In this document: positions 10,247-44,180 of the stretch, piece by piece
Layout: each line of letters starts with the position of its first letter
Numbering within the stretch: the stretch's first letter is position 1
Assembly (NCBI GenBank): GCA_913052165.1
Contig: CAJXEC010000003.1
Location: 1 to 61,805 of the forward strand
Length of the DNA stretch: 61,805 bases
Reading direction: 5' to 3'
Source: an uncultured Rhodospirillaceae bacterium
GTDB lineage: Bacteria; Pseudomonadota; Alphaproteobacteria; MPNO01; UBA2964
Position numbers and translations under genes: made by a program
The notes under the pieces: model-generated
What the model was told of the DNA's origin: nothing
Database searches by the model: none
What the model saw: the letters and a program-made list of their open reading frames with translations, nothing else

Positions 10247-10329
10247 GGCGCGAGGTGTAAATATGGGCTCTTACAGGAACCATGTTTGACGAAAAATAGT
10301 CGTTTCGCCTAGGATAAAAAAAGCCAGTA

Positions 10330-11211: not shown

Positions 11212-11285
11212 AGGCCTCTGAGCAGCCTCTGCGCTTGCTAGGAATGACCATAAACCAGACTTGTCGGGGGGTATCTGACGTATAG

Positions 11286-16167: not shown

Positions 16168-16250
16168 TGCAAATCTCTCTCCTTAGCGCCTTGTCTTTGC
16201 GGTCATGATCCCGATAATAGCGCCTGATATTTAAAAATGGAGTGAAGGGT

Positions 16251-19239: not shown

Positions 19240-19523
19240 GCCAGTTATTTGGTATTGGTGATATTGTCAGAGTGATTGATGCACATCCTCCAGGTCATCG
19301 AAGGACGCCATATTATTGTCGGGGTAAGAAAGGAAAAATCGAGCGAGTTTGTGGGGAGCATAGAAACCCAGAAGAGCTTGCATATGGCTTCGATGGAAAA
19401 CCTCTGAGGCGTCTGTATCGGGTTAGGTTTAACCAGTCGGATATTTGGGGACATTATGATGGACCCACTCAAGACACTATCGACATTGACATTTATGAGC
19501 ATTGGCTTAGGTCAGCGGAATAA
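19236..19523 (+). CDS. nitrile hydratase family, beta-subunit C-terminal (SH3-like) half as a separate polypeptide
   Basis: GDIVRVIDAHPPGHRRTPYYCRGKKGKIERV ... LYRVRFNQSDIWG ... IDIYEHWL matches the NHase beta C-domain. GAGG SD lies ~11 nt upstream. Confidence 0.8.
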   Translation: MSQLFGIGDIVRVIDAHPPGHRRTPYYCRGKKGKIERVCGEHRNPEELAYGFDGKPLRRLYRVRFNQSDIWGHYDGPTQDTIDIDIYEHWLRSAE

Positions 19524-19535
19524 AAGGGCACTACA

Positions 19536-20234
19536 ATGACGAATGAAACTGAAAAACAGGAACCTGATCATGGTCATAGTCATGGTGACCTCGATGCGGA
19601 TGCACATGCACTTGAACACATTCATGACCACGATCGTCAGTTTCAGCCGGATCTCGAGGATACTCCGCCAACGCGCTACGAGCTGATGGTCTATGCGATC
19701 CGAGAATTGCTGATTGAAAAAGGTCATGTCACTCAAGAAGAAATAACCAAAGCACGAAATACGCTCGAGAGTTGGCAGCCATCACGGGGTGCCGAAATTG
19801 TAGCTCGTGCCTGGACAGATCCCGACTTCAAGAAAAGGCTGCTCACTGATGGTAATGAGGCAATGGCAGATTTCGGGGTGGATGCGGGAGGCGCAAAGCT
19901 AACAGTTTTAGAAAATACAGACGAGGTACAAAATGTAGTCGTTTGTACACTGTGTTCCTGCTATCCCAGAGCGGTGCTTGGGTTGCCACCAGATTGGTAT
20001 AGGTCAAAGGCATATCGGGCGAGAGTCGTCGTCGAACCTCGGAAAGTCTTGAAAGAATTCGGCACCGAAATCCCCGACGAGGTAACCGTTAGGGTTCACG
20101 ATAGCCTGGCAGATCTGCGTTACCTGGTCATACCAAAAAGACCTGCTGGGACGGAAGATTGGAGCCAAGAACAACTTGCCGAAATTGTCACAAGAGACAG
20201 TATGGTTGGAGTAACGAATCCAAAGGCTCTGTGA
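19536..20234 (+). CDS. nitrile hydratase family alpha subunit, cobalt-type metal site, with His-rich N-terminal extension
   Basis: VVVCTLCSCYPRAVLGLPPDWYRS (CTLCSCY at nt 19944-19964) is the Co-type claw-setting motif. RAWTDPDFKKRLL and LRYLVIPKRPAGTEDWS are also present. N-terminus reads EKQEPDHGHSHGDLDADAHALEHIHDHD. Confidence 0.9.
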   Translation: MTNETEKQEPDHGHSHGDLDADAHALEHIHDHDRQFQPDLEDTPPTRYELMVYAIRELLIEKGHVTQEEITKARNTLESWQPSRGAEIVARAWTDPDFKKRLLTDGNEAMADFGVDAGGAKLTVLENTDEVQNVVVCTLCSCYPRAVLGLPPDWYRSKAYRARVVVEPRKVLKEFGTEIPDEVTVRVHDSLADLRYLVIPKRPAGTEDWSQEQLAEIVTRDSMVGVTNPKAL

Positions 20235-20261: not shown

Positions 20262-22598
20262 ATGCCTGATGGACATTTTGGCGGGTCACTCGTCCGGCTA
20301 GAAGATGAAGAATTACTGGTCGGCTCAGCCAAGTATATTGATGATATAAAACCCGCTGGTGTATTGCATGCCTGCTTTGCAAGAAGTTCGTATCCTCACG
20401 CTTTATTAAACAAAGTTGACCTCGCGGCAGCGCGTCTAAAGCCTGGGGTTGTTGCGGCGTATACCATAGATGACCTGGTTGATGTCTTGACCACTGACAG
20501 GATTCCGGAGACCTTTCCTAAACCCCAGCCGCGCGAAGAATATGGGCCTTATGTCCTGGCTCGTGACGAGGTTTGCTACGTTGGAGAGCCCGTTGCAATC
20601 GTTATAGCGAATACTCGATATGAGGCTGAGGATGCGGCTGCCTCGATCGAGATTGAATATGATCCCCTCGATTCGGTAACAGATTGCATGCGAGGGGCAT
20701 ATGAAGGTTCCCCATCAGTAGATACCAGACAAAATACAAATGTTTTTAGTTCTGTGGAATTAGCATTCGGTGATACCGATGCGGGATTTAACTCATCCAT
20801 GCATTCAGTAAAAGAGACCTTCCGGCAACATCGAGGTGTTGCTTCATCAATGGAGTGCCGGGGTGGCGTGGCCAATTTTGATCCTGTAAGAAAAAAAATT
20901 ACGATGTGGGCCTCTTGCCAGCAACCGCATGGCCATAAGGCAATTATTGTTGATCTCTTCGGTGTTAACGAGGATCAGGTCAGGGTCCTAGTGCCAAATT
21001 TGGGTGGTGGATTTGGGCCAAAGTTAAATTTTTATCCTGAAGATGGGGCAATTATCGCGTCCAGTATTAAGCTGGGCCGTCCCGTAAAATGGATAGAAGA
21101 TCGTCGCGAGCATCTTCTCACCACGACCCAGGAGCGAGATCAAATATGGGAGGTCGAGCTAGCCGCAAAACCTGATGGTACGCTTGTAGGTCTTCGAGGG
21201 AGCCTCTATCACGATCAAGGTGCCTATACAGTGAGAGGAACCAACATTCCATTTAGCGCAGCGACAACGATTTTAGGTCCTTATATTCTCCCCAATTACA
21301 GAATGGATGTTAAGGTAGTTCACACAAATAAGGTGCCTTCAACGTCAATGCGAGGCGCAGGCCATCCTCAAGGCAATTTCGTAATGGAACGTCTCTTGGA
21401 TAGAATGGCTGACGAACTTGGGATCGATCGCGCAGAAATTCGCGCCCATAATATGATCTCGTCGAAGCAAATGCCTTACGAACAACCTCTAAAAACACAA
21501 GCAGGGCAACCAATCATTTATGACAGCGGGGACTATCTGGCTTGTCAAAATAATTTAATGAGAGAACTCGCGTATTCTGAATTTCCTGAAAAGAAAAAAT
21601 CTGCGCAAATAGAGGGTCGCCATATTGGATTGGCTATTGCAAATTACGTAAAACCAACCGGTCGGGGCCCGTTTGAAAGTGGGCTTGTTAGGATAGGAAC
21701 TTCTGGACAGGTATCGGTATACACTGGTGCCGTTGCAATGGGCCAAGGTTTTCGGACAGCGATGAGCCAACTGGCGGCCGAACAACTCGGAATTAAACCG
21801 AGTGAAGTGAATTTTATTTCTGGAGATACAGATACTATCAGTCACGGTATTGGGGGGTTCGCTAGCAGGCAAACTGTCTGCGCAGGCTCAGCTATTCATC
21901 AAGCGTCTCTTAAGGTGCGTGCGAAGGTCATTTCGGTCGCGGCGCATTTGCTCGAGGCCTCTGAAGAAGACCTAGAATTAAAAGACGGCTGTGTATTTGT
22001 TAAGGGAGTTGAGGACCTATCAGTAGGTTTTAGAGAAATAGCGAATTCGGTAGCTGGAATTCCTGGGGTTTCTCTTCCTGAGGGGATTTCGGCTGGGCTG
22101 GAGGCTAAAGTTGATTTTAAACCCGACAACGTCACATATGCGAATGGTGCGCACGGGTGTGAGGTAGAAGTGGACCCCGAGACAGGCCGAGTAACTATCC
22201 TGCGTTACGTAGTTGTCCATGATAGCGGTCGTTTAGTGAACCCACTTATCGTTGATGGTCAAGTTCACGGAGCTGTCACTCTCGGTTTGGGTCATGCCTT
22301 TTACGAAGAAATGATGTACGATCAAGAAGGACAACCTCTTAGCACCAATCTTGCCGAGTATCTAATACCAACGGCGTGCGAAGTACCAAACTTTGAAATC
22401 ATCCATCATGTATCTCCGACTGACCGAAATCCAATTGGAGTTAAGGGGGTGGGGGAGTGTGGGGTCATGGCATCCATGCCGGTTCTTCTTGCCGCGGTTG
22501 AAAATGCCCTCAGCCCTTTTCATGTAAAACTCAACGCTTATCCTGTAACTCCGTCAATGATAGTGGAAAAAGTTCGGGCGGGCACAAACTTGGACTAG
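20262..22598 (+). CDS. xanthine dehydrogenase / aldehyde oxidase / CoxL-family molybdopterin-binding large subunit (no partner subunits nearby)
   Basis: 778 aa. a/b-hammerhead N-terminus (LVRLEDEELLVGSAKYIDD), then GGGFGPK, SMRGAGHPQGNFVMERLLD, and C-terminal GVKGVGECG with the catalytic Glu. Confidence 0.85.
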   Translation: MPDGHFGGSLVRLEDEELLVGSAKYIDDIKPAGVLHACFARSSYPHALLNKVDLAAARLKPGVVAAYTIDDLVDVLTTDRIPETFPKPQPREEYGPYVLARDEVCYVGEPVAIVIANTRYEAEDAAASIEIEYDPLDSVTDCMRGAYEGSPSVDTRQNTNVFSSVELAFGDTDAGFNSSMHSVKETFRQHRGVASSMECRGGVANFDPVRKKITMWASCQQPHGHKAIIVDLFGVNEDQVRVLVPNLGGGFGPKLNFYPEDGAIIASSIKLGRPVKWIEDRREHLLTTTQERDQIWEVELAAKPDGTLVGLRGSLYHDQGAYTVRGTNIPFSAATTILGPYILPNYRMDVKVVHTNKVPSTSMRGAGHPQGNFVMERLLDRMADELGIDRAEIRAHNMISSKQMPYEQPLKTQAGQPIIYDSGDYLACQNNLMRELAYSEFPEKKKSAQIEGRHIGLAIANYVKPTGRGPFESGLVRIGTSGQVSVYTGAVAMGQGFRTAMSQLAAEQLGIKPSEVNFISGDTDTISHGIGGFASRQTVCAGSAIHQASLKVRAKVISVAAHLLEASEEDLELKDGCVFVKGVEDLSVGFREIANSVAGIPGVSLPEGISAGLEAKVDFKPDNVTYANGAHGCEVEVDPETGRVTILRYVVVHDSGRLVNPLIVDGQVHGAVTLGLGHAFYEEMMYDQEGQPLSTNLAEYLIPTACEVPNFEIIHHVSPTDRNPIGVKGVGECGVMASMPVLLAAVENALSPFHVKLNAYPVTPSMIVEKVRAGTNLD

Positions 22599-22601
22599 AC
22601 A

Positions 22602-23153
22602 ATGGCTCGTTTTCCTAAAATTGATCCTGAAAATATGGAGGATAAACAAAAACGTGTAAGCGATGCGATTGCAGGCGGCCCCCGGGGGAGTGTTAGGGGG
22701 CCATTCCATGCACTTCTTTACGCGCCGGATGTTGCAGACCTAGTCCAGGCTCTTGGTGCTCACGTGCGCTACTCGATCTCGATACCTTGGTCACTTCGCG
22801 AGATTGCCATCCTAGTTACAGCTAAGCACTGGAATGCCCAATATGAATGGTATGCGCATGAAAAAGAGGCACAAAAAGCGGGCACTGATCAAGCCATTAT
22901 AGACGCGATCCGTGAGGGTAGACGTCCAGATTTTACGCCAGATCAATCTGCTGAGGCCGACATTTATGCATTTGCTACTGAGCTTTATGAAAATCGTTCG
23001 ATTAGCGATGCTACCTTCGATAAAATCTCGAATGCCTATGGTAAAGAGGGTGCCATCGAACTAGTCGCCCTAATGGGGCATTACAACGTAATTGCAATGA
23101 CGTTGAACGTAGCGGAAGTAGAAGTTCCAGGTGGAGATCGCCCCCTGGGTTAA
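22602..23153 (+). CDS. carboxymuconolactone decarboxylase (AhpD-like) family protein
   Basis: The motif AKHWNAQYEWYAHEKEAQKAG is typical of the CMD family. It starts 3 nt after the Mo-subunit stop. Confidence 0.7.
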   Translation: MARFPKIDPENMEDKQKRVSDAIAGGPRGSVRGPFHALLYAPDVADLVQALGAHVRYSISIPWSLREIAILVTAKHWNAQYEWYAHEKEAQKAGTDQAIIDAIREGRRPDFTPDQSAEADIYAFATELYENRSISDATFDKISNAYGKEGAIELVALMGHYNVIAMTLNVAEVEVPGGDRPLG

Positions 23154-26364: not shown

Positions 26365-28218
26365 CTAATTGGTACCAATAGCCATTCTGCGCGCCGCTCT
26401 CTTCCGCTCGTTGGGATCAAGAAATCTTTTGCGTAATCTAATTGCATTGGGTGTTACCTCGACAAGCTCATCCTCGGCGATGTATGAAATAGCACGTTCG
26501 AGCGTCATTTTGATGGGTGGAGTAAGAAGTATATTTTCATCCGAACCCGCGGCTCTGATATTCGTAAGTTGCTTCGCTTTAAGGGGGTTAGCTTCTAAAT
26601 CTTGGCCTTTATTATGTTCCCCGATTAACATTCCACCGTATACATCGGTCCCCGGGGAGACAAAAAGGGCACCCCGGTCTTCTAAATTCCACAGAGCATA
26701 GGCAACAGCTTTGCCCCGGCTTATGGAGATTATTACACCGTGGTGACGTCCATCTATATGACCTCTGTTGGGAGAGTATTCATGAAACATTCTGTTCATA
26801 ACCCCAGTGCCATGTGTATCCGTAAGAAATTCTCCATGATAACCAATTAGGGCTCTGGAGGGCGCATGGAAAACCAATCTTTGCTTTCCGCCGCCGGAAG
26901 GGCGCATTTCGCGTAACTCGCCGCGACGTGCTCCAAGTTTTTCGACTACCACTCCTGAATATTGCTCGTCGACATCGATGGTAACTTCTTCAATGGGTTC
27001 TAATCTGGCCCCAGAGTCGGGATCTTCTCGATATACCACTCTAGGGCGACTGATGGAGAGTTCATATCCTTCTCTTCTCATAGTTTCCACCAAAACCGCT
27101 ATCTGCAATTCGCCGCGTCCCGCGACCTCGAAGCCGTTTCCATCAGGTTGATCAGAGATGTGAATTGCTACATTGCCCTCGGACTCACGCATTAGTCGGT
27201 CCCGGATCATCCGAGAGGTAACTTTATCTCCGTCCTGTCCTGCCAATGGGGAGTCGTTGATTGAAATCGTTACCGCTAGGGTCGGTGGGTCGATAGGTCT
27301 AGCCTCGAGGGCTTGTGTAACGCCGGCGTCACAGATCGTATCTGCCACCGTAGCTTTTGGAAATCCAGCCAAAGCGACAATGTCGCCAGACGAAGCTTCC
27401 TCCAACGGCACACGTTCCAAACCTCGGAAGGCGAGTATTTTTGTGACGCGAGCCTGTTCGATTTTATGTCCGTCGCGGGAGAGTGCGATTGCGTTAGTAT
27501 TCGCTTTGATCGTGCCACTATCTACACGACCCGTTAATAGTCTACCGAGGTAGGGGTCTGACTCTAAGGTCGTGGCCAGCATTTTGAATGGAGCATTAAG
27601 TTGTATATCTGGTGCGGGCACATGGCCTATAATCAAGTCAAAAAGAGGCTGAAGGTCATTCCCTGGATGGTTCGGGTCTTCCCCCATCCAGCCTTGCTTA
27701 CTTGAGCCGTAAAGCACCGGAAAGTCGAGTTGGAATTCATCCGCATCTAGGGCCGCAAACAAGTCAAATATTTCATCGAGGACTTCGTCGGGTCTTGCAT
27801 CCGACCTGTCCACTTTATTTATGATTACAATAGGCCTTAAACCAAGCCCTAAAACTTTGGACAAAACAAATTTGGTTTGAGGCATTGGCCCCTCGGCTGC
27901 GTCCACCAGTAACAGGCAGCCATCCACCATCGAAAGAATTCGTTCTACCTCACCTCCAAAGTCGGCGTGACCAGGAGTGTCAACTATATTTATTCGAGTA
28001 TCTCCCAGCTCTATGGAGGTGCATTTAGCTAAAATTGTTATGCCACGCTCCCTTTCAAGATCATTGGAATCCAGTGCTTGTTCAGGAACTTTTTGGTTTT
28101 CTCTAAATTGCCCTGATTGCCGGAGCATGCAGTCGACGGTAGTGGTTTTTCCGTGGTCCACATGAGCGACGATAGCAATGTTCCTTAGCTGTTCAATATG
28201 CATTGGCGGCGCGTTCAT
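26365..28218 (-). CDS. typA: translational GTPase TypA/BipA
   Basis: NIAIVAHVDHGKTT, DTPGHADFGGEVER, NKVDR, and a full EF-G-like domain set ending in the BipA-specific C-terminal domain. 617 aa. Confidence 0.95.
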   Translation of the reverse strand: MNAPPMHIEQLRNIAIVAHVDHGKTTTVDCMLRQSGQFRENQKVPEQALDSNDLERERGITILAKCTSIELGDTRINIVDTPGHADFGGEVERILSMVDGCLLLVDAAEGPMPQTKFVLSKVLGLGLRPIVIINKVDRSDARPDEVLDEIFDLFAALDADEFQLDFPVLYGSSKQGWMGEDPNHPGNDLQPLFDLIIGHVPAPDIQLNAPFKMLATTLESDPYLGRLLTGRVDSGTIKANTNAIALSRDGHKIEQARVTKILAFRGLERVPLEEASSGDIVALAGFPKATVADTICDAGVTQALEARPIDPPTLAVTISINDSPLAGQDGDKVTSRMIRDRLMRESEGNVAIHISDQPDGNGFEVAGRGELQIAVLVETMRREGYELSISRPRVVYREDPDSGARLEPIEEVTIDVDEQYSGVVVEKLGARRGELREMRPSGGGKQRLVFHAPSRALIGYHGEFLTDTHGTGVMNRMFHEYSPNRGHIDGRHHGVIISISRGKAVAYALWNLEDRGALFVSPGTDVYGGMLIGEHNKGQDLEANPLKAKQLTNIRAAGSDENILLTPPIKMTLERAISYIAEDELVEVTPNAIRLRKRFLDPNERKRAARRMAIGTN

Positions 28219-29807
28219 ATGGTTTGTTCCTTGGTGTTAACAAAACGGATATCAGGCCAATCCTCTTGGGCACGATCTAAATGCCAGGCATTCCTTGCAA
28301 GGAAAACAGGATGTCCGCGGTGATCGTCTGCGATCGAACCTTCGTTCTTACGAACAAAATCTTTCAATTTTCCTTCATCATCAGATTCGAGCCAGCGCGC
28401 TGTGATTAAGCTCGTTGATTCAAACCGCGCGGGGACATCATATTCAGTTCGGATCCGATCAGCCATCACCTCAAATTGCAGGACCCCCACTGCACCTACA
28501 ATCCAATCAGAGCCAACGCGAGGTTTGAAGACAGAGGCAGCCCCTTCCTCCGCAAGCTGTTGCAGAGCCCGTCCCATATGCTTGGCCCGCATCGGGTCCT
28601 CGGGCCGCGCTGCTCTGAGGTGCTCAGGGGCAAATGAGGGCAAGCCTGTGAACCGGAGCACTTCCCCTTCAGTTAGGGCGTCGCCTATATGAAGGTTTCC
28701 ATGATTTGGGATGCCGATAATGTCTCCAGCCCAAGCCTCTGCCGCGAGTTCTCGGTCTCGCGCAAGGAAAAGAACAGCATTATGGAGAGCTAAATGTTTT
28801 TCGGTTCTCACATTTTTCAGCTTCATACCCCTTTTGAAATGCCCAGAGCATAGCCGGACAAAGGCGATCCTATCGCGATGACGGGGGTCCATATTGGCCT
28901 GGATTTTAAAGACAAAACCCGAAACTTTATCGTCTTCTGGAAGAATTTTACGCTCGATAGCGGGCTGGGGCCGGGGGGCAGGAGCGTGCCTTGCAAGACC
29001 AGAAATCAATTCGGATACACCAAAACTATTAATGGCACTTCCAAAAAATACCGGTGATAAGTTACCTGCAAGATATGCACTTTCATCAAATTCGGGGCAG
29101 AGACCTCTCACCATTTCAACTTGGTCCCGCAGATCTGATAATGCGTGATCTGGCAATAATTTATCCAGTTTTGGATCATCAAGTCCCGAGCAGGTCTCAA
29201 CTTGATGCGGTTTTTCACCTCTTGAACCTTTATCCATGAGCAAAAGTTGATCGCCCATGAGATCGTAACAGCCAAGAAAACCGGAGCCCATACCTATTGG
29301 CCAACTCGCAGGGGTTACCTCGATCTGCAGTGTCTGCTCAATTTCATCCAGTAAATCGAATGGATCCTGTGCTTCCCGATCCATCTTATTTATAAACGTT
29401 ATGATAGGCATATCGCGAAGCCTACAGACCTCGAATAGCTTCTTCGTTTGAGCCTGAATGCCTCGTGCGGCATCTATGACCATGACTACGGAGTCAACTG
29501 CTGTGAGCACCCTGAACGTATCTTCAGAGAAATCTTCGTGCCCTGGTGTATCTAATAAATTAAATGTTTTTTCATCATAGTCGAAGGTCATGACTGAGGC
29601 CGTCACTGAAATGCCACGCTCACGCTCTACCTTCATCCAATCGGAATGCGCGCGTCTTTGCTCGCCGCGGGCCTTCACGGCACCCGCTAGTTGAATGGCA
29701 CCACCAAAGAGGAGTAGCTTTTCCGTCAGCGTGGTCTTTCCCGCATCTGGGTGGGAGATTATTGCGAAAGTACGCCTACGGGCTATTTCGGCTGATAAAA
29801 CAGACAT
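28215..29807 (-). CDS. prfC: peptide chain release factor 3
   Basis: RRRTFAIISHPDAGKTTLTEKLLLFGGAIQLAGAVKAR, SDWMKVERERGISV, DTPGHEDF, and NKMDRE. 530 aa. The stop overlaps the typA start (ATGA). Confidence 0.95.
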   Translation of the reverse strand: MSVLSAEIARRRTFAIISHPDAGKTTLTEKLLLFGGAIQLAGAVKARGEQRRAHSDWMKVERERGISVTASVMTFDYDEKTFNLLDTPGHEDFSEDTFRVLTAVDSVVMVIDAARGIQAQTKKLFEVCRLRDMPIITFINKMDREAQDPFDLLDEIEQTLQIEVTPASWPIGMGSGFLGCYDLMGDQLLLMDKGSRGEKPHQVETCSGLDDPKLDKLLPDHALSDLRDQVEMVRGLCPEFDESAYLAGNLSPVFFGSAINSFGVSELISGLARHAPAPRPQPAIERKILPEDDKVSGFVFKIQANMDPRHRDRIAFVRLCSGHFKRGMKLKNVRTEKHLALHNAVLFLARDRELAAEAWAGDIIGIPNHGNLHIGDALTEGEVLRFTGLPSFAPEHLRAARPEDPMRAKHMGRALQQLAEEGAASVFKPRVGSDWIVGAVGVLQFEVMADRIRTEYDVPARFESTSLITARWLESDDEGKLKDFVRKNEGSIADDHRGHPVFLARNAWHLDRAQEDWPDIRFVNTKEQTI

Positions 29808-33422: not shown

Positions 33423-34418
33423 TTAGATCCTTTTCTCTACACCGCGTTTCCGTCCTTGATCAACGCTCAAAAAAAGATCATCCACTGACATCTTATTCTT
33501 CATGAGAGCCTGCTCGTGCGAATAATTGATCATATTCTCCAGTGTTTTACGATTTTGTGCCCCGAGACCATATTCCCATGGATCCGTCCCAAGCAATTGC
33601 TCCTGTTCTTCCCAAGCCTCCCTGTACCAGGCCAGAGGAACAATTCTTGGGTTGACCATTTTTTTCATCGCTAGATTTTTAGCCTCATTCAGAGCGTGAT
33701 ACATGTTTATCGGCACCCAGGGGTATTGCTCAACCACTGACTTTTTAATTCCTGTGATGTGCATAATTGGAAACATGCCCGTCTTGCTAAAAAAGTTCAC
33801 TTCCTCATTTTTAAAATTCGGCCATAGCCGAGCGACTCGGGGATCTCCATCCATAAATGGCTTAATAATTGAGGAATGAATGCACGCATCAAGCTCTCCT
33901 GTGGCTACCATATCTTCGACAGATTTATCATCGGATAATGTCTTTAGCCTTATGTCATCTGGCAATTCAACAGGGATGTCTTGATCCAATTCCTGGTACC
34001 AATCGATGGACCGATGAGGCACACCATATTCATGCTCCAGAATCCCTTTCATCCACAATATTGCTGTCACCTGCCAATGTTTAATACCCACCTTTTTCCC
34101 TATTAGGTCCTTGGGCTCATTAATGCCTGCATTGGTGTTAATAAAAACGAACCCGTGTCGAAAACGTCTATGTAAATAGACAGGAATTGCATCAAAAGGT
34201 TTGTTTTGATCTTTAGCGACCAGATAGGTGGAGCACGAGGCCTCCGCCATATCAAAGTCTTCATTGTTATAAAATCTCCAGTGCCGAGTGGTTGAGTCCA
34301 TATCGGTTAAAACGGTCAGGTCGATGCCGTCGGGTTTTACAATTCCATCGATCAGCGGCCGCGTAATCGCATAATCGCCGCATGCAAAAGTCAGGGGAAT
34401 ATTTTTACTCATGTCCAA
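33423..34418 (-). CDS. PhtD-like / NMT1-fold cytoplasmic protein (paralog 3)
   Basis: IPLTFACGDYAITRPLIDGIVKPDGIDL, DFDMAEASCSTYL, and FPIMHITGIK. Confidence 0.65.
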   Translation of the reverse strand: MDMSKNIPLTFACGDYAITRPLIDGIVKPDGIDLTVLTDMDSTTRHWRFYNNEDFDMAEASCSTYLVAKDQNKPFDAIPVYLHRRFRHGFVFINTNAGINEPKDLIGKKVGIKHWQVTAILWMKGILEHEYGVPHRSIDWYQELDQDIPVELPDDIRLKTLSDDKSVEDMVATGELDACIHSSIIKPFMDGDPRVARLWPNFKNEEVNFFSKTGMFPIMHITGIKKSVVEQYPWVPINMYHALNEAKNLAMKKMVNPRIVPLAWYREAWEEQEQLLGTDPWEYGLGAQNRKTLENMINYSHEQALMKNKMSVDDLFLSVDQGRKRGVEKRI

Positions 34419-36462: not shown

Positions 36463-36858
36463 CTAGCCCGAACCAATGTCCTCTCCATCGACTACAAAGT
36501 CGAATTTCTTTCCTGCCGGTGCATAAATTTCAAATATTTCAAAAACTTCCATGTCCGAGGCATTCTGAAGCGAGTGTTTGGACCCGGCTGGAATGTAAAC
36601 AATGTCGTTTTCTCGAAGCATATGCTCATTGCCATCAACTATGAGGCGCCCCGTGCCTGATTTAACAATGTAGACATTATCTGCGATAGAGTGGGAGTGA
36701 TAGTGTCCCCCGGGTTCACCAGGAGCGAGCCGGTTCAGATGTAAGTCGATCTTTTCAGCGCCACATTCACTATTTATCAAGCGTACCTGTTCTCCACGGC
36801 CACCCTTCATGGGATTAGTCAAACAGTCATTTAAGTGAAGGAGTCTAAATTCCGGCAT
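36463..36858 (-). CDS. cupin-domain protein (last gene of the UbiD/EutA-like operon)
   Basis: Cupin motifs GGHYHSHSIADNVYIVKSG and VYIPAGSKHSLQN. It starts 17 nt after the EutA-like stop. Confidence 0.75.
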   Translation of the reverse strand: MPEFRLLHLNDCLTNPMKGGRGEQVRLINSECGAEKIDLHLNRLAPGEPGGHYHSHSIADNVYIVKSGTGRLIVDGNEHMLRENDIVYIPAGSKHSLQNASDMEVFEIFEIYAPAGKKFDFVVDGEDIGSG

Positions 36859-36875
36859 AGCTCTGTAGACCTTTA

Positions 36876-38411
36876 TTACTCTTGTCTCCCTGGCTGAGAG
36901 AATAGCAGGCTCTTTATGATTAAGGGCACGACTTGGGTGGTTTCCATCTGCTCCCCTATATCAATAAAGTCAAAGTCATTTAGTTGGACGTTGTCAACTG
37001 AAATAACCTCACCCTTTACCCCAAGTTCTTTGGTCAAAATGTTGCCCAGAGTACGTCCCGCATCACCATCCATCACGACTATTAGAGGAATCCCGGCGTC
37101 AGCGACGGTTTTAGGTAATCCATCGCAAATTCCTGACGCCAGTTCGAACAGACGAGCGTGCAAAGGATCGCCACCCCAGCGGAATGCAACTGCTAAATTT
37201 GTCTCACCATCTGTCATATCCAGACGGACCATTGCTTGAGCAATTGCCGCGGATATGTCTTCTTTGGTGAAATCTCCTGTCACATCACAATCGAGGTATG
37301 CCACTGGGACATTTCTTATCGGCAGTTTTCCTGGGTCAGATATGAAAATTGTGTTCCCGCTTACTTGTACAGTGAATTGAGAGGCGCCTACCACGGTCGC
37401 TCGTATGCCGGCACCCGGGTCATAGACTTTCGGAGCAATCCGCTTGTGTCCGAGCGCGTGGCGAATCTCATGTGCCAGAGATTTTCCCAAATCACCTCTG
37501 TCTTGCTCCTCACGACCGTAAACGAATTCAGAAACTCCACCGGAGAAGGTAATGGCATCAATTTCAGGATCCTTTGGCAGATGGTCAGTAAGCCTCAGGG
37601 CTTCGCAAAGCGGATCATCTCCTGTGTCCCGATTTGCGTAGGAAACCAGAACCTCGACCATGCGATTAACAATTTTCTTTCGGTCTTCTTCTGAGAGCTC
37701 TTTTTCCAGTTCCAGCGAGACACCGACATCTTGAGCTACTTGTTCTGCGGGCCCCTCGATCCTAACCATCTTCCCAGTCTCATCGAATGCGATCAGACGA
37801 CCCCCGACAGCAAAGGCACTAGTAGCTGTAAGTTTTCCTTTTTCGCAGAGCGCAAGCTTGATTGTGCCGCCGCCCACGTCAATATTCAGGACTGTGATGT
37901 TCTCTTTACGAGATAAGGCGACCGCTCCGGAGCCATTTGCGGCCATTAAAGACTCAAGGTGGTGTCCCGCCGATGCGCAAACAAATTTCCCTGATTTATC
38001 GGCAAAGAGGTCCGCGATTGCACGCGCATTTGTTCTCTTAAGTGCTTCGCCGGTCAATATCACTGCCCCGGTATCAATATCCTCGGGCGTTAGTTCGGCC
38101 TTTTTATAAGCGTTGCTAAAAAATTCAGAGAGTTCTTCTGCGTCTATGGTGTAATCGGACCGATAGGGAGTCAGTAGAATTGGGGATCGCCAGATCACCT
38201 GTCGATTGACCACTACAAACCTACTGGAGAGCCCTTCCATCAGTCGCTGGAGATGCACTTTCGAAAACATGAGGTGCGAGGTTGATGATCCAACATCAAC
38301 ACCCACAGTGGTTAATTCGACATTATCTTGTTCCCAGATAGCTTCGGCTAGTTCAGCCTGCTCTTCCTCTGACATATGCAGATGTTCAAATCCAAGATCG
38401 TGCACGTCCAT
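36876..38411 (-). CDS. EutA-family (ethanolamine ammonia-lyase reactivase-like) double-ASKHA ATPase
   Basis: Collinear with EutA as I recall it: VGVDVGSSTSHLMFSKVHLQR, GAVILTGEALKRTNARA, FVCASAGHHLESLMAANGSGA, VLNIDVGGGTIKLAL, ITFSGGVSE, and C-terminal VVPLIIKSLLF. It also has a ~35-aa acidic N-terminal extension. Confidence 0.8.
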   Translation of the reverse strand: MDVHDLGFEHLHMSEEEQAELAEAIWEQDNVELTTVGVDVGSSTSHLMFSKVHLQRLMEGLSSRFVVVNRQVIWRSPILLTPYRSDYTIDAEELSEFFSNAYKKAELTPEDIDTGAVILTGEALKRTNARAIADLFADKSGKFVCASAGHHLESLMAANGSGAVALSRKENITVLNIDVGGGTIKLALCEKGKLTATSAFAVGGRLIAFDETGKMVRIEGPAEQVAQDVGVSLELEKELSEEDRKKIVNRMVEVLVSYANRDTGDDPLCEALRLTDHLPKDPEIDAITFSGGVSEFVYGREEQDRGDLGKSLAHEIRHALGHKRIAPKVYDPGAGIRATVVGASQFTVQVSGNTIFISDPGKLPIRNVPVAYLDCDVTGDFTKEDISAAIAQAMVRLDMTDGETNLAVAFRWGGDPLHARLFELASGICDGLPKTVADAGIPLIVVMDGDAGRTLGNILTKELGVKGEVISVDNVQLNDFDFIDIGEQMETTQVVPLIIKSLLFSQPGRQE

Positions 38412-38490
38412 TTCCTTTTTCTCACTAATAAAATTTACACTTACATGTGGCCATTTTTCTTAAAACTTTCGTTTTTAGAGGATATGACCC

Positions 38491-39969
38491 TCAATCACGG
38501 GGAAAAGGTAAGTGACTAAATTTTTCGCGAATTTGCTTACGCAGTTCCTTGCTCACGTCAACCACCGGGGGGAAGACACCCTTCAGCAGCTGATCGTAAG
38601 GGATGCAAGCATCGATTAAAATTCGATTATTAAAATTCCCGGGAAGATAAAGGGGGTCTCGCTTAGACGCCCATGCTTTTAAGATTAAATCGATATCTGT
38701 ATCTGGGTCGAAGCGGGTCGACATCGCCCAAAGGACCTGATCGAGATCGCTTGCGTCGATGTCTTCGTCAACAACGACTGTCCATTTACCCGCGTAAGCA
38801 CCACCCTGACAATTAGATGCGACGTGTAAAACATTTCTCGCATGTCCAGGATATCGTTGCTTAATTTGTATGGCAGTGAAACGAGTTGCTGGTCCACCCT
38901 CGTGGTTCCAAACTCCCAAAATGTCGGGAAGACCGCATGCCTCGAGCGATCGCCATATTTCTGCGGATCCTGCAATACCTTTGAGGAGCCCTGTTTCATC
39001 TACGGGCTTGTGTTGTGGGGCGCAGGTGATGATGGGATCATTGCGGTGCAAAATGTTTTTAATTTCGACGTATGGTCGGGGGACTGAGTCATCTGAATAA
39101 TAACCCATCCACTCTCCAAATGGTCCCTCTTCCTTAACTTTTCCGGGTCTAGCAACCCCCTCAATTGCGATTTCAGCATCGGCTGGGATAGGAAAACCCG
39201 TATATGGACCCTTAATACATTCTATGGCCTCGCCTCGAATGCCTCCTGCAAAGTCGAGCTCTCCAACGTCTTCTGGCAGGGGACTCGCAGATAACATATA
39301 CAAGAGTGGGTCCATGCCAACTAATATGGCGAATTTACATTCCTCCCCGCGTTCAAAATATTTGTCGCGATGAATTCTCCCATGTTTGCCCTCGGTTATT
39401 TGGCAGCCGATAGTTTTGGCGTCGTAAACCTGATTTCGGTATGTACCCAAGTTGTAAGAGCCGTCATCGGGATCCTGACTAATGACGCAGTTGGCAGTGC
39501 CAATATACCGGGCTTTATCCTGCTCATGGTGTCTTGGAACAGGAAATTTCAAAACATCGACGTCGTCGCCTGTCATGATATTTTCCATAACGGGCCCGCT
39601 ATCGACAATTTTAGGAGGGATCAATTCCATGTTTTGCATGCGGTCATAATAGCGCTGTACAATATCTGCTTTGCGTTCATGTTCGAGAGGAAGCCCTAGC
39701 GTAAGAGCGACACGTTTTATCGAGGAGAGAGAACCATACAGGGTGCGGTATCCTTGCGGATATCCAGGAACATTATCAAACAACAGCGCGGGAGCATTTC
39801 CTCGACTTTTTTCAGTCATCATCTGAGTGATGCTGCCCATTTCTGCGTCCCAGCTGGCATTATCGACACGTAGCAACTCTCCAAGGTCATCGACCTTTTC
39901 TATCCAGTGTCTCAGTCCCCGATAACTTGCTTGGTCATTTGAAAGCCCGGCACTTCGTGCGTCATCCAT
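38491..39969 (-). CDS. UbiD-family (prFMN-dependent) reversible decarboxylase
   Basis: 492 aa. NLGTYRNQV, GKHGRIHRDKY, FAILVGMDP, ELDFAGGIRGEAIECIK, and PADAEIAIEG match the UbiD family core, including metal/prFMN-phosphate ligand positions. Confidence 0.85.
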   Translation of the reverse strand: MDDARSAGLSNDQASYRGLRHWIEKVDDLGELLRVDNASWDAEMGSITQMMTEKSRGNAPALLFDNVPGYPQGYRTLYGSLSSIKRVALTLGLPLEHERKADIVQRYYDRMQNMELIPPKIVDSGPVMENIMTGDDVDVLKFPVPRHHEQDKARYIGTANCVISQDPDDGSYNLGTYRNQVYDAKTIGCQITEGKHGRIHRDKYFERGEECKFAILVGMDPLLYMLSASPLPEDVGELDFAGGIRGEAIECIKGPYTGFPIPADAEIAIEGVARPGKVKEEGPFGEWMGYYSDDSVPRPYVEIKNILHRNDPIITCAPQHKPVDETGLLKGIAGSAEIWRSLEACGLPDILGVWNHEGGPATRFTAIQIKQRYPGHARNVLHVASNCQGGAYAGKWTVVVDEDIDASDLDQVLWAMSTRFDPDTDIDLILKAWASKRDPLYLPGNFNNRILIDACIPYDQLLKGVFPPVVDVSKELRKQIREKFSHLPFPRD

Positions 39970-40098
39970 ATTTTGCTCCTGACATCTGTGGTTTTACCCA
40001 GCGTTTAAGGACTCGGTGTAGGTTACAGCCCTGCTCCACAACTTTATAACATTGCCGCTCTGACCCGAAAACCCGTTACTAGATAGCAGCGGTCGAGT

Positions 40099-40127
40099 TT
40101 GACAGTTACCTAAGTAATTGGTTCAAT
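40099..40127 (+). promoter_or_regulatory. candidate sigma70-type promoter for the SDR gene
   Basis: TTGACA (40099-40104), a 17-nt spacer, then TTCAAT (40122-40127), about 28 nt upstream of the ATG at 40155. Confidence 0.4.
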
Positions 40128-40154
40128 CTGTAACAAAAGTTAGGGAGAAATCAA

Positions 40155-40898
40155 ATGAGACTTCAGGATAAAGTAGCCATTGTGACCGGGGCAGGTCGCA
40201 ACATTGGCGAACAAACGGCGCTCCTCTTTACCGACGAGGGTGCAAAAGTTTCAGTGGTTGATATGGATGAAGAGCGCGGCAAGAGAACCGTCGAGACGAT
40301 CAACCAGTCCCATCCGGGCTCCGCCATATATATTTCTGCCGATGTTTCAAATGAGCAATCCGTTAAGGACATGATTGCAGAGACAGTAAATACATTTGGT
40401 CGCTTAGATGTCTTGGTTAATAACGTAGCTATTTCGGATAATAAAACGGTATTTGAATGTAGTTTGGACGACTTCAATAAAGTCCTTGCCGTTACGCTCA
40501 CAAGCCAGTTTTTAACAAGCAAATATGCAGCCGAACAAATGATATCACAAGGCGATGGTGGATCTATTGTCAACATAGGTTCTACCTCTGGGTTCCAAGG
40601 GAGGGAGAGTGCGATCGCATATGCAGCAGCGAAAGGTGGCGTTGCTAATCTTATGCGCGGGCTAGCGGTCCAACTCGCACCTCATAAAATCAGGGTGAAT
40701 GCTGTAGTCCCCAACAAGATTGGTTCTCCGGTTGGGCAAGAAGATTTTGATCCCACACGTCCGGTGCCGAACTTAGCGGGGCGAGCGGGTGAACCACGTG
40801 AATTGGCCCAAGCGGTCTTGTTTATGGCGAGCGACGAATCTCGTTTTGTCTATGGTGAAAATCTAGTAGTAGATGGTGGGTTCAGTGCAATGATGTAG
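40155..40898 (+). CDS. short-chain dehydrogenase/reductase (SDR)
   Basis: VAIVTGAGRNIGEQ, NNVA, and YAAAKGG (YxxxK). GGGAGA SD. Confidence 0.9.
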   Translation: MRLQDKVAIVTGAGRNIGEQTALLFTDEGAKVSVVDMDEERGKRTVETINQSHPGSAIYISADVSNEQSVKDMIAETVNTFGRLDVLVNNVAISDNKTVFECSLDDFNKVLAVTLTSQFLTSKYAAEQMISQGDGGSIVNIGSTSGFQGRESAIAYAAAKGGVANLMRGLAVQLAPHKIRVNAVVPNKIGSPVGQEDFDPTRPVPNLAGRAGEPRELAQAVLFMASDESRFVYGENLVVDGGFSAMM

Positions 40899-40965: not shown

Positions 40966-42993
40966 TTACACGAAGAAGTTTGGCAACCAGCTTGGTTCAT
41001 GCCAAAGAACGGGCACAATCTCGTTAAACATTCCTAGCAAGAAGACGATGGTTCCAATTAAATAGATGACGATAACTCTCCAACCATAGTGCCCCCAAAA
41101 CACCAGATACAATAGAACGAACAAAACAAGAGTTGGAAATTGGCCAATTGCGATTGTGAATACGAAAATACCAACCATCCAGCTCATAAAATACATGCTT
41201 TTCCAGACATAGGCAGGGTCAACGCCCACCACGTCTAGATTTGCTGTGCCAGCTTTTATCGCTTTCAGAGTTTTGAAATCTTTAACAAGCGCTCCTAAAG
41301 CTAAGCAAAAACCGACAATCGCGACAGAATGAGGGAAAAGTTTTGATGAAAATCCCCAAGGGATCGCCTCGTAATAACAATAAGAAAAGATAACTAATAA
41401 CATTGCTGCCAATGGCCATGAAGCGGCGGGACAATCTTTGCCCCCTTCCTCGGCAATCTGAACTGCGGTTTCGACATCCTTTGGAGCTCCCGCTTTTCGA
41501 GCCTCTTGGGCGTCTTTGTTTTTACGGTTTTGTTTTCTGACAGTGCTGACTATCGTGACGATCGTAAGCGCAATAATTATCAACACGATGGGCCGGGTCA
41601 GTGAGCCCCAACCATGGGTTTGCATAGAAATACCGAGTGACTCTTCCATGATTTTTCCAAGCACAAAGCCAAGGACTATTGGAGGTCTTGGCCACCCACC
41701 TAGTTTCATGAAATAACCGATTAGGCCAAATATGAGGAGGACAATCCAGTTTCCAAGTGTACCGTTTCCGACCCAGGCCCCCATGAAAACAACAATGATT
41801 ATTGTGGGCACAATTATATGGCCTTGGATGTAGGTAATTTTGGAGACCTGGCTGCCCCAAATTAGTAGGATCAGTGCTCCGACGACATTTGCCATTACCA
41901 AAGTCCAGATAAGTGTGAAGGTAATGTTAAGATTCGTGGTCAATATCTGAGGACCTGGTTCGAGTCCTTGAATGAAGAATGCGCTCAGTAAGATAGCCAT
42001 TGAGGCGCTACCTGGTATCGCGAAGGCGATGGTGGGTAGTAATGCGCCGCCTTTCATAGCATTATTAGCGGCTTCTGGAGCAATGACGCCTCTTACATCG
42101 CCTTTGCCAAAGTTCTCGCTATTTTTTTCTGACTGCGCGGCGTGCCCGTAGGCAACCCAGTCGACGATTGAACCCCCAAGGCCTGGAAGCATCCCGATAT
42201 AAACCCCGATCGCCGTACAGCGAAGGGCTAGCCACCAGTTTTGCGCGGCATCTTTCATGCCTCTTAAAATACCTCCAGCCTCTACCTCTGTTCGCTTCAC
42301 TCTGGAGATCGAAGTGTTACGAACGGCGAGTTCTAATACCTCCGGGATAGCAAAGAGACCCAGGACGTATGGAACGATTGGGATACCCTCGAGTAAAAAG
42401 TTTTGGTTAAACCAGTAGCGTCTGACGCCACCAAATTCGGCAAAGCCCACACAAGCAAGCATGAGCCCGAAGCAGGCAGCTGCGGTTCCTTTATAGATCG
42501 ATTTTCCGCTCAATGCAGCGACCATAGTGAGACCAAGTACGGCTAATGCGAAAAACTCAGGCTCAGAGAAAGATAAAATGAGAGGTCTAACCACGGGAAT
42601 TGAGAGCGCTAAAAAGATCGCTCCCAAAACACCTCCGAACATCGATACAGTATAGGCGGCACCCAAGGCCCGTGATGCCTGCCCTTTTTGGGCCATCGGG
42701 TAGCCGTCTAGGATCGTTGCTTGCGAAGCAGCGGTCCCGGGAATACCAAGTAAAACCGAAGCAAGGGTATCCGCGGTGGTGGTCACTGCATACATCCCGA
42801 GTATGAAGGCGAAGGCTATTTGAGGCTCCATCCCGAAGGTGAAGGGAAGGAGGATGGCCATTCCGACTAGGCCACCTAACCCTGGGACCGCCCCGAAAAA
42901 CATTCCTATAGCAACGCCCAGCAACATATATCCTGGGGCTGGCCAAACCAAAACCAGTCTAAGTCCGTCTAGAACCGCCTCCATAAAGGTCAT
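40966..42993 (-). CDS. tctA: tripartite tricarboxylate transporter permease, TctA domain fused to a C-terminal TctB-like 4-TM domain
   Basis: The first ~500 aa are TctA-like (GAVPGLGGLVGMAILLP, GIPGTAASQATILDGYPMAQKG, MLPGLGGSIVDWVAYG). A charged linker (RKQNRKNKDAQEARKAGAPKD) follows, then ~150 aa with 4 TM segments. No separate tctB gene is present. Confidence 0.8.
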   Translation of the reverse strand: MTFMEAVLDGLRLVLVWPAPGYMLLGVAIGMFFGAVPGLGGLVGMAILLPFTFGMEPQIAFAFILGMYAVTTTADTLASVLLGIPGTAASQATILDGYPMAQKGQASRALGAAYTVSMFGGVLGAIFLALSIPVVRPLILSFSEPEFFALAVLGLTMVAALSGKSIYKGTAAACFGLMLACVGFAEFGGVRRYWFNQNFLLEGIPIVPYVLGLFAIPEVLELAVRNTSISRVKRTEVEAGGILRGMKDAAQNWWLALRCTAIGVYIGMLPGLGGSIVDWVAYGHAAQSEKNSENFGKGDVRGVIAPEAANNAMKGGALLPTIAFAIPGSASMAILLSAFFIQGLEPGPQILTTNLNITFTLIWTLVMANVVGALILLIWGSQVSKITYIQGHIIVPTIIIVVFMGAWVGNGTLGNWIVLLIFGLIGYFMKLGGWPRPPIVLGFVLGKIMEESLGISMQTHGWGSLTRPIVLIIIALTIVTIVSTVRKQNRKNKDAQEARKAGAPKDVETAVQIAEEGGKDCPAASWPLAAMLLVIFSYCYYEAIPWGFSSKLFPHSVAIVGFCLALGALVKDFKTLKAIKAGTANLDVVGVDPAYVWKSMYFMSWMVGIFVFTIAIGQFPTLVLFVLLYLVFWGHYGWRVIVIYLIGTIVFLLGMFNEIVPVLWHEPSWLPNFFV

Positions 42994-43029
42994 GGCGATT
43001 TACCTCAGCATCAAAGTTTGAACGAAAAG

Positions 43030-43053
43030 GGGGCGCCCCGCTTGAGGCGCCCC
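43030..43053 (-). terminator. intercistronic GC hairpin between tctC and tctA (attenuator or mRNA-stabilising element)
   Basis: GGGGCGCC ccgcttga GGCGCCCC forms an 8-bp GC stem. On the transcribed (minus) strand it is followed by CTTTTCGTT. Confidence 0.5.
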
Positions 43054-43082
43054 GATTACTATAATTTTGCCATTAGGAGTCT

Positions 43083-44180
43083 TTAGCTCTTCGCAGCGTT
43101 TGCATAGTCCAATAAGAATTTCTGAAGGTCCGCAGGCACATTCACTAGTCCTTTGATAAACTGCTGAGCTTCTTTACCCGATTTTCCGACGAAAATGCTG
43201 GAATTTACTTTTTTATACTCTGCCAAGAATTCTTTATCTTTAACAGTTTTGTCCCAGGCCGTACGCATGATGTTTACGGCTTTTTTGCTTGTCCCTTTTT
43301 TGAAGACGAGGATACGAAGCATTTCCCTAGTGCCGCCGATAGTTCTGAGCGCATTCCAAATCATCTTTGGGGGGCGTTTGCCCTTGCCGAATTTGGTCTC
43401 ATACACCTCTTGAAACGATGCTATATTTTTTGCGACGGATGGAGAGTGCAAGATTGTATTGTTGGGACCTGGTGTCCCGATATGCCACATGGGAATTGAA
43501 ATCCCTGGCTTTATCAATTGCTTATTCACGCGACCATAAAACCCTGCTAATGAGTCCGCCGTGCAATCCAACTCATTTTTTAAAATGGCTGCTCTGATCT
43601 GGCCGCCTGATTTGTACCCTGTTACATGCTTGAGTGGAATTTTTAAGGCATCAAAAAATAGGCGTGTGCGCAAATCTTTCGAACTAGTGGGCCCATGCCC
43701 ACCAGTACGAATTGGATGTTTGGTGTTGACCAAGTCGCGCCACGATTTAATTTTTATGCCTGGAATTGCGTCAACCCGACAGTGCGCAATCGTTTGCTGG
43801 CCAATGGCACCAACAAATTGAAACTGTGATAGGTCCGTTCTCAATTCTGGTGCCTTCATAACCTGAGCCATAATCGGGATTGTAAATACTCCCATCATTG
43901 TGCCATTCGTTTTTCCAGCCTCAGCTAGGAAGTTCGCACCTACTGCCCCCCCTGCACCGGATACATGACGGAAGATCAAACGGGGCTTGCCGGGGATATA
44001 CTTGGCCATGTGCCGCATGACCATGCGACCCTGTATGTCTGTGTTTCCACCAGCACCGTAGTTTATAATTATGTTAATCCTCTTGCCCTTGTAGAACTGA
44101 GCATCCGCTGTGGCACTGAGGCCAATTGATCCTAGGGCAATCGCCATAACGGCAAAGCTTGAATACTTTAATAAATTCAT
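43083..44180 (-). CDS. tctC: TTT-family periplasmic substrate-binding protein (TctC/Bug family)
   Basis: Signal peptide MNLLKYSSFAVMAIALGSIGLSATADA. NYGAGGNTDIQGR and SGAGGAVGANF are typical Bug/TctC motifs. Confidence 0.8.
   Translation of the reverse strand: MNLLKYSSFAVMAIALGSIGLSATADAQFYKGKRINIIINYGAGGNTDIQGRMVMRHMAKYIPGKPRLIFRHVSGAGGAVGANFLAEAGKTNGTMMGVFTIPIMAQVMKAPELRTDLSQFQFVGAIGQQTIAHCRVDAIPGIKIKSWRDLVNTKHPIRTGGHGPTSSKDLRTRLFFDALKIPLKHVTGYKSGGQIRAAILKNELDCTADSLAGFYGRVNKQLIKPGISIPMWHIGTPGPNNTILHSPSVAKNIASFQEVYETKFGKGKRPPKMIWNALRTIGGTREMLRILVFKKGTSKKAVNIMRTAWDKTVKDKEFLAEYKKVNSSIFVGKSGKEAQQFIKGLVNVPADLQKFLLDYANAAKS

Follow-up and report, generated by a model that had tools for sequence, protein, structure and literature searches.

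EutA, the reactivase of ethanolamine ammonia-lyase, is an ATP-dependent helper directed at a protein, and the diol and glycerol dehydratase reactivases DdrAB and GdrAB are Hsp70/ASKHA-like ATPases that open the client enzyme in order to release a damaged, tightly bound cofactor. The 'archerases' HgdC and BcrAD/BadFG are likewise ASKHA ATPases with a partner enzyme as their target, and they hold a subunit-bridging [4Fe-4S] cluster on conserved cysteines. The metallochaperone systems HypB/HypA, UreG/UreE and CobW/COG0523 use nucleotide hydrolases, carry a His-rich or Met-His-Glu/Asp tail and are encoded beside the client metalloenzyme, sometimes together with a NiCoT transporter. UbiD decarboxylases hold their cofactor, prenylated flavin mononucleotide (prFMN), via Mn2+/K+. 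Their known helpers UbiX, LpdD/VdcD and PhdC, which are encoded beside UbiD enzymes and supply or mature prFMN, are non-ATPases with flavoprotein, Pba3/4-like and HpaC-like folds. UbiD maturation is diverse, and the decarboxylase PhdA is served by a maturase of its own, PhdC. Here we analyze a UbiD-family gene, a gene for a EutA-like ATPase and a cupin gene that lie in a row in a 61,805-nt stretch (the window) of contig CAJXEC010000003.1 from an uncultured Rhodospirillaceae bacterium. The ATPase is a member of a large and so far uncharacterised branch of the EutA (PF06277) family of ASKHA ATPases, a branch that is not tied to B12, and is not an ethanolamine-lyase reactivase. It is more likely to be a metal-enzyme helper of an undescribed kind than a dedicated chaperone of UbiD.

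The locus had been picked out in an original prediction made from the sequence, which proposed that the ATPase loads or reactivates the prFMN of the neighbouring UbiD enzyme. The open reading frames (ORFs) and coordinates of the three same-strand genes, with gaps of 79 and 17 nt, were reproduced exactly, and no terminator-like site was found on the minus strand between them. The operon and its upstream flank are as follows.

38491-39969, minus strand: UbiD-family decarboxylase of 492 aa, PhdA-like and prFMN-dependent, first gene of the operon
38412-38490, minus strand: UbiD/EutA-like spacer of 79 nt, with an AGGA ribosome-binding site and without a terminator
36876-38411, minus strand: EutA-family (PF06277) ASKHA ATPase, listed as 511 aa, of the non-B12, bicupin-associated clade
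36859-36875, minus strand: EutA-like/cupin spacer of 17 nt, from the gene layout
36463-36858, minus strand: Cupin_2 protein of 131 aa, third gene, 17 nt past the ATPase gene
39970-40154: divergent intergenic stretch between the UbiD gene and a short-chain dehydrogenase/reductase (SDR) gene, the probable promoter region of the operon as judged from gene layout
40155-40898, plus strand: SDR gene, divergent from the UbiD gene and kept in every locus of the UbiD-linked clade

Using E. coli UbiX, EutB, EutC and EutA from NC_000913.3 as queries, we searched the window and about 100 related loci by tblastn and found no match (E <= 0.01) to UbiX, EutB or EutC. The sizeable ORFs of the window were all scanned with Pfam as well and gave no UbiX, B12 enzyme, HpaC/PhdC-like or LpdD-like protein. 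Both absences that the original prediction had claimed are thus real for the window. The absence of UbiX says little, since the two genes are unlinked in E. coli as well, and an alphaproteobacterium that makes ubiquinone would be expected to carry ubiX elsewhere in the genome.

The EutA-like ATPase and its family

The EutA-like protein matches PF06277 from end to end (profile positions 2-474 of 475, 405 bits) and is collinear over its full length with E. coli EutA (b2451), at 33% identity. The motifs VGVDVGSSTSH and NIDVGGGT, reported as intact in the original prediction, are present in the window and invariant among homologues. All the ASKHA residues of the phosphate-1 (D39, G41, S42, S43, T44), phosphate-2 (D178, G180-G182, T183) and adenosine (G291, G292) motifs, which EutA shares, are likewise invariant. 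An AlphaFold 2 (AF2) model shows an ASKHA fold with Foldseek matches to Ppx/GppA, PilM, MreB, HgdC and DnaK. A sequence search of the PDB found no solved structure of the EutA family.

Full-length membership in PF06277, the name EutA given to homologues by NCBI and JGI, and the fact that only 62 kb of the genome is visible could all be taken to mean that the protein is a genuine EutA, whose client (ethanolamine ammonia-lyase or a different B12 enzyme) is encoded in another part of the genome, and that its position beside UbiD is incidental. However, it scores below all four NCBIfam EutA equivalog cutoffs (NF007991-NF007994; top score 351 bits versus 598), lies on a long branch from the E. coli protein and carries an N-terminal tail that is specific to its clade and missing from E. 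coli EutA. Its conserved partner is also a different one, a bicupin described below. No eutB or eutC was found by tblastn within 6-8 kb at about 100 EutA-like loci, unlike in E. coli, where eutA sits in the eut operon. A genuine EutA is therefore highly improbable, in agreement with the judgement made earlier from gene context. The nearest homologues of the ATPase do not sit beside B12 enzymes; a position beside such enzymes is what the original prediction had named as contrary to its proposal. What the protein would share with EutA is the logic of an ATP-driven helper of a partner enzyme.

DdrAB and GdrAB serve as a working analogy only, that of an ATPase opening its client for the release of a damaged cofactor. 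They are two-subunit systems with B12 clients, have no detectable sequence similarity to the EutA-like protein and are not among its top structural matches. A weak Pfam match to BcrAD_BadFG and the presence of HgdC among the structural matches recall the Fe-S activators of the archerase type. This reading was rejected, as only C145 is invariant among the cysteines; the window cluster also has an aerobic character, since it encodes an HpaB-type monooxygenase and dioxygenases.

At 50% identity the EutA-like family falls into hundreds of clusters, and at 90% into thousands. Thousands of genes from soil and marine sources are automatically annotated as 'ethanolamine ammonia-lyase reactivating factor EutA' though never beside eutBC, and recognition of a separate bicupin module corrects this systematic mis-annotation. 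A few family members have unusual architectures: P0368 joins the ATPase to a bicupin C-domain (a single sequence, possibly an artefact), P0498 is a fusion with an MFS transporter, and in P0490 and P0507 an uncharacterised N-domain of about 210 aa contains a conserved CxxC...HH.

The start codon of the window gene was also reconsidered. The DNA at this point reads AAAAAGGAA-ATG-GAC-GTG-CAC, with AGGA 1-2 nt before the ATG and 7 nt before the GTG. The 7-nt spacing and the match to the M-H-D N-terminus of the family point to the GTG at 38405, two codons past the ATG, as the likely start. The listed ATG (38403-38411 region) is probably wrong, and the protein would begin with MHDLGFEHLH. The earlier length of 511 aa holds for the ORF, while the true length is probably 509 aa.

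Genomic partners of the ATPase

The first gene of the operon is a UbiD-family gene with the core motifs, as had been stated. Its product passes PF01977, PF20696 and PF20695 (UbiD, UbiD_C and UbiD_N domains) and scores 282 bits against TIGR00148, for which the cutoff is 245. The motifs NLGTYR, KHG, GELDFAGG and EGPFGE align with high posterior probability to phenazine-1-carboxylate decarboxylase, PhdA (7PDA), the nearest solved structure (318 bits). We take the roles of the Mn2+/prFMN and catalytic motifs (N-x-G-x-Y-R, His, Glu and E-G-P-F-G-E) to be those of Fdc1/UbiD. Phenylphosphate carboxylase beta is the top NCBIfam match, below cutoff. An orthologue of PhdA was ruled out, the homologue being of moderate identity and the window being without phdB (UbiX) or phdC (HpaC-like); we refer to the protein as PhdA-like only.

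In order to determine how widely the UbiD/EutA-like pairing is kept, we compared loci (numbered with the prefix L) that carry related ATPase genes. In each locus with an EutA-like protein of 69% identity or more to that of the window, a UbiD gene lies directly 5' of the ATPase gene. There are 12 such loci besides the window (L001-L007, L010, L022, L023, L104 and L105; 69-98% identity), all in a Rhodospirillaceae clade. L001, from a marine Rhodospirillaceae metagenome-assembled genome, is 98% identical to the window at the locus. L010 appeared to hold an EutA-like pseudogene beside an intact UbiD gene; this was dropped, as the break is a 100-N scaffold gap. Saturation of synonymous divergence (dS) blocked the use of dN/dS, and third positions of conserved four-fold codons were examined instead. 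Between the window and L002, L004, L104 and L105, their identity is 0.26-0.32, which is random, while the proteins are 69-90% identical. These values show that the arrangement is old and that the ATPase is under strong purifying selection; a relic gene was rejected on the same grounds. Beyond this clade the pairing ends: L107 (67% identity) and all more distant homologues have no adjoining UbiD gene. The earlier expectation that the adjacency is conserved thus applies to one anciently diverged clade and to none outside it. In the literature searched we found no account of the module or of the UbiD/EutA-like pairing, as the original prediction had supposed.

A different gene adjoins the ATPase gene in most of the family. 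The sample comprised 80 metagenomic loci plus genome loci, and a locus was counted as informative when its EutA-like protein was <69% identical to that of the window and at least 1.1 kb could be read on each side. A bicupin of about 365 aa directly adjoins the ATPase gene in 48 of 54 informative loci (47 of 52 without two duplicate contigs), while UbiD does so in none of the 54. The bicupin is upstream in 39 loci and downstream in 28, with gaps of 9-370 nt, and is on the same strand in all but one. L106 and L107 are two further bicupin-adjacent cases, and L013 has three bicupins two genes away from the ATPase gene. Two to four tandem bicupin paralogues accompany a single ATPase gene in L008, L013, L016, L026 and L029, the paralogues being 48-59% identical. 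In a neighbour-joining tree rooted on E. coli EutA, bicupin adjacency persists over deep branches and the UbiD-linked sequences form one clade nested within the bicupin-upstream radiation. This nesting indicates that the bicupin is the ancestral partner and that linkage to UbiD is derived. The window itself has no bicupin.

The bicupin family is large (>5,800 clusters at 90% identity), and its members are named only 'hypothetical' or 'RmlC-like cupin'. Residues H243, R244, H245, H289, Q290 and H291 (HRH...HQH) are invariant. A model of the protein resembles Mn oxalate decarboxylase (OxdC), MncA and gentisate 1,2-dioxygenase (Foldseek E 1e-12 to 1e-16), with which it shares the fold and a 3-His site at an identity of only 12-17%. 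The structure search returned generic bicupin matches without a specific functional lead, and family-level searches gave weak matches to Cupin_2 and 5-aminosalicylate dioxygenase only. We know of no bicupin that has an ATPase partner.

These data bear on the proposal that the ATPase acts as a dedicated chaperone of the adjoining UbiD and loads or reactivates its prFMN (or prFMN-Mn2+) site. In favour of it, UbiD is the sole invariant same-strand neighbour of the ATPase gene in its clade (12 of 12 loci and the window), in an arrangement that has outlived synonymous-site saturation. The UbiD gene also holds the directly upstream slot that the bicupin client has in sister clades. The ATPase is under purifying selection in L002 and L104, where the small cupin is missing, and UbiD enzymes need diverse helpers, PhdC being that of the nearest characterised relative of this UbiD. 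Against it, the whole cluster is syntenic, and UbiD therefore cannot be singled out by adjacency. None of five UbiD orthologues of other lineages (71-76% identical) has an EutA-like gene nearby, and the UbiDs of the clade are no closer to one another than to these outside orthologues; the identity to the window protein is 75% for L104, within the clade, and 76% for L017, of another lineage. Across all 86 bicupin-linked loci, no UbiD gene adjoins the ATPase gene.

UbiD-family genes are enriched in the vicinity of the bicupin-linked modules, which is a further point for a connection. Five such genes (one each in L015, L079 and L087, two in L106) occur in 629 kb, against 0.16-0.63 expected from an assumed rate of 1-4 UbiD genes per 4 Mb, and catabolic islands inflate co-occurrence of this kind. 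In L106 (3403-7557), UbiD, bicupin, EutA-like and MFS genes form a tight operon with spacers of 13 nt between UbiD and bicupin and 16 nt between bicupin and ATPase, and a second, very different UbiD gene (10116-11753) lies on the opposite strand 2.5 kb downstream. However, all five belong to subfamilies other than that of the window UbiD, at 26-47% identity. The recurrence and the L106 operon make a link between UbiD and the module likely at the level of the pathway; a link of chaperone and client is possible. We consider a dedicated prFMN chaperone unlikely. The parts of the original prediction that stand are an accessory, non-B12 ATPase and a pairing with UbiD that is kept within a clade. 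The dedicated role is weakened by the predominance of the bicupin, by the five UbiD orthologues without an EutA-like neighbour, and by the His-rich tail and NicO permease described below, which suggest a role in metal rather than flavin handling.

Three of the five UbiD orthologues from other lineages (L017, L018 and L108/L109) adjoin three-subunit molybdenum hydroxylases of the XDH type. This suggests a route in which an N-heteroaromatic acid is hydroxylated and then decarboxylated.

Metal-related features and the proposed role

Three further features of the window bear on the function of the ATPase.

38376-38405, minus strand: codons for M-H-D-L-G-F-E-H-L-H in the N-terminal tail of the ATPase, a putative metal-binding motif followed by an acidic helix
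35894-36301, plus strand: second small cupin (Cupin_2) of 135 aa, convergent with the operon, with H54, H56, E60 and H96 invariant
4463-5191, minus strand: NiCoT/NicO-like membrane protein with a HALEADH signature and a His-rich loop, without a Pfam match

The alignment of E. coli EutA begins at the first phosphate motif, and the EutA-like proteins have an N-terminal extension before this point. Across about 90 loci it follows the pattern M-H-[DE]-h-x-[FL]-x-H-x-H (M-H-D-x3-H-x-H in the window), then an acidic helix, then W..DNVEL. H4, H10 and H12 do not vary among 26 homologues with identities as low as 58%, and residues 1-13 are disordered in the AF2 model. The composition of the extension was measured in 128 largely independent representatives clustered at 50% identity. 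His makes up 10.3% of the extension and 2.0% of the body (p about 3e-137), and Asp plus Glu 22.8% versus 12.2%. At least three His are present in the extensions of 58 of the 128, some of which have poly-His runs. The acidic extension noted originally is therefore real in comparison with E. coli EutA, but it is not merely acidic; it is a conserved, His-rich motif. Metallochaperones typically have tails of this kind in their metal-binding regions, and HypA has its nickel site at an N-terminal Met-His-Glu. We offer this resemblance as a lead.

A gene for a putative Ni/Co permease of the NicO family lies directly 3' of the ATPase gene in seven loci (L005, L006, L010, L022, L023, L104 and L105), all from the deeper branches of the clade linked to UbiD. 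The L105 copy has a 4-nt overlap with the stop codon of the ATPase gene. The encoded proteins have an H-x4-D-H signature and a His-rich loop. The score against PF03824 passes the gathering cutoff for L005 (E = 1e-10) and is just under it for L105 (E = 7e-6). The window protein at 4463-5191 is 42-47% identical to the NicO proteins of L104, L105 and L005. In the window subclade the position after the ATPase gene has thus been lost, and a homologue is kept 31 kb away.

The 131-aa cupin that follows the ATPase gene matches Cupin_2 (PF07883, 54 bits) and has a canonical H-x-H-x3-D...H metal site, whose ligands H54, H56, D60 and H95 are invariant in nine orthologues. It is present in 10 of the 12 informative loci of the UbiD-linked clade and missing from L002 and L104. 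Derivation of the small cupins of the window as cut-down bicupins was rejected (hhalign probability <10%).

Our preferred reading, to which we give a probability of about 40%, is that the EutA-like protein is a non-B12, ATP-driven helper that loads or repairs the metal centres of partner enzymes, with the bicupin as its ancestral client. The flexible tail, rich in His and in Asp/Glu, would bind a divalent metal. The ASKHA core, judged from its intact motifs, would bind and hydrolyse ATP, and the ATPase would load, exchange or repair the metal centre of the partner, by analogy with EutA and the diol dehydratase reactivases. Full-length collinearity with EutA, an ATP-dependent reactivase of a protein, is what points to a protein-directed role. 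The usual and ancestral client would be the bicupin of about 365 aa encoded directly beside the ATPase. In the lineage of the window the bicupin would have been lost, leaving the ATPase gene between the PhdA-like UbiD gene and, ancestrally, the NicO permease and 3-His cupin genes. The most likely client in this lineage would then be the cupin encoded downstream or a different metal-dependent enzyme from the cluster, with UbiD as the second candidate. The resemblance to HypB, UreG and CobW lies in the metal-type tail and the NicO linkage, both seen here for EutA-like proteins. HypB, UreG and CobW are G3E P-loop GTPases, whereas the EutA-like protein is an ASKHA ATPase without a Pfam or NCBIfam match to a G3E-type P-loop GTPase, and its binding of metal is putative.

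Several observations weigh against this reading. The known metallochaperone NTPases are G3E GTPases and not ASKHA proteins, and the fold search with the ATPase model gave generic ASKHA matches without a specific functional lead. Metal binding by the tail is putative, being deduced from its composition alone. In L011 the tail is missing yet the core His residues of the bicupin are kept, and tail and bicupin ligands do not co-vary cleanly. NicO genes are linked to the ATPase gene only in the clade that also has the UbiD linkage, and not at bicupin-linked loci. The ATPase is conserved in L002 and L104 without a bicupin or the small cupin, which implies that the cupin cannot be its only client in this lineage. 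The tandem bicupins could also be subunits of a hetero-oligomeric ATP-dependent enzyme.

This last point touches on another explanation, in which the EutA-like protein is itself a catalytic, ATP-consuming enzyme or subunit of the pathway (for instance a kinase or ligase, or the subunit that energises a (de)carboxylase or ring-opening enzyme). It would act on a small-molecule intermediate, and the bicupin or UbiD would carry out a coupled or adjacent step. The ASKHA superfamily includes small-molecule kinases and the ATP-dependent hydantoinase, oxoprolinase and acetone-carboxylase enzymes. The genomic setting is in keeping with a catalytic step: EutA-like modules are always inside catabolic clusters of transporters, MarR, aldolase, aldehyde dehydrogenase, reductase and decarboxylases. 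Their recurrent neighbours are an NMT1-like decarboxylase (the second most frequent, in at least 23 loci), TctC, class II aldolase, MarR, CMD, an FNR-type reductase, aldehyde dehydrogenase, and MFS and solute-binding-protein transporters. The gene also persists after loss of the bicupin, as expected of a pathway step of its own, the tandem bicupins could be subunits of a complex, and the top NCBIfam match of the UbiD, though below cutoff, is from the ATP-dependent phenylphosphate carboxylation system. However, collinearity over the full length is with EutA and not with any known kinase family, and a disordered tail rich in His and acidic residues would be unusual for a kinase. That a single ATPase gene accompanies several divergent bicupin paralogues is more easily explained by a helper common to them all than by a kinase specific to one substrate. 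The window has no phenylphosphate-synthase or HAD subunits. On balance we think a catalytic role improbable.

If the EutA-like proteins do mature or repair metal centres, the reactivase concept would widen from B12 to ordinary metal enzymes, and a new fold would be added to the metallochaperones. It is conceivable, though we put it forward tentatively, that these non-B12 proteins represent the first metallochaperones or reactivases with an ASKHA fold, using ATP and the His-rich tail to insert or repair the metal centre of bicupin and cupin catabolic enzymes, and that in the window lineage the client was switched after loss of the bicupin, possibly to the Mn-prFMN site of UbiD. Should the ATPase of the window lineage act on UbiD, it would be the first ATP-dependent UbiD maturation factor. 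The supply of active holo-enzyme is a bottleneck in UbiD biocatalysis, and an effect of the ATPase on the PhdA-like UbiD is potentially useful either way. The ATPase and its metalloenzyme make up a two-gene system that can be tested directly.

The surrounding catabolic island

The operon lies in a larger catabolic island, of which the following genes are most relevant.

40966-44180, minus strand: TctA-type permease (PF01970, 430 bits) and TctC-like binding protein, a pair that is syntenic in the clade
33423-34418, minus strand: NMT1-like protein of the 4,5-dihydroxyphthalate decarboxylase family (PDB 9JP7, E = 8e-51)

The TctC-like label was assigned by homology to neighbours that match PF03401, and the pair is the probable uptake system for the carboxylate substrate of the cluster. 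The island also encodes an SDR, a VOC extradiol dioxygenase, an FAH hydrolase, an HpaB-type monooxygenase, a cyclase/arylformamidase, PrpD-like, OCD and RidA proteins, and molybdenum hydroxylases of the XDH type. These genes, together with PhdA as the nearest relative of the UbiD, point to the breakdown of an aromatic or N-heteroaromatic carboxylate. Three NMT1-like paralogues occur within this one 62-kb window (12027-12998, 16242-17240 and 33423-34418). Two housekeeping GTPase genes, prfC (RF3) and typA/BipA, border the island in the window (26365-29807, minus strand) and in the distant relatives L104 (11589-13527) and L105 (11639-13456), which indicates that its chromosomal position is conserved.

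Two additional gene arrangements were observed. On the plus strand of the window at 18886-20234, a protein with NHase_beta_N only (117 aa, PF21006) and an NHase_alpha protein (232 aa, PF02979, 268 bits) are encoded directly 5' of an XDH-type molybdenum subunit and a CMD-like ORF (20262-23153). The nitrile-hydratase-like beta subunit is half-length, and the context is an odd one for such a pair. A Haem_oxygenas_2 gene (PF14518, 'iron-containing redox enzyme') is found beside EutA-like modules in L013 (452-1207), L016 (1-589) and L039 (7562-8275). In L039 it lies directly 3' of an EutA-like gene that is without a bicupin.

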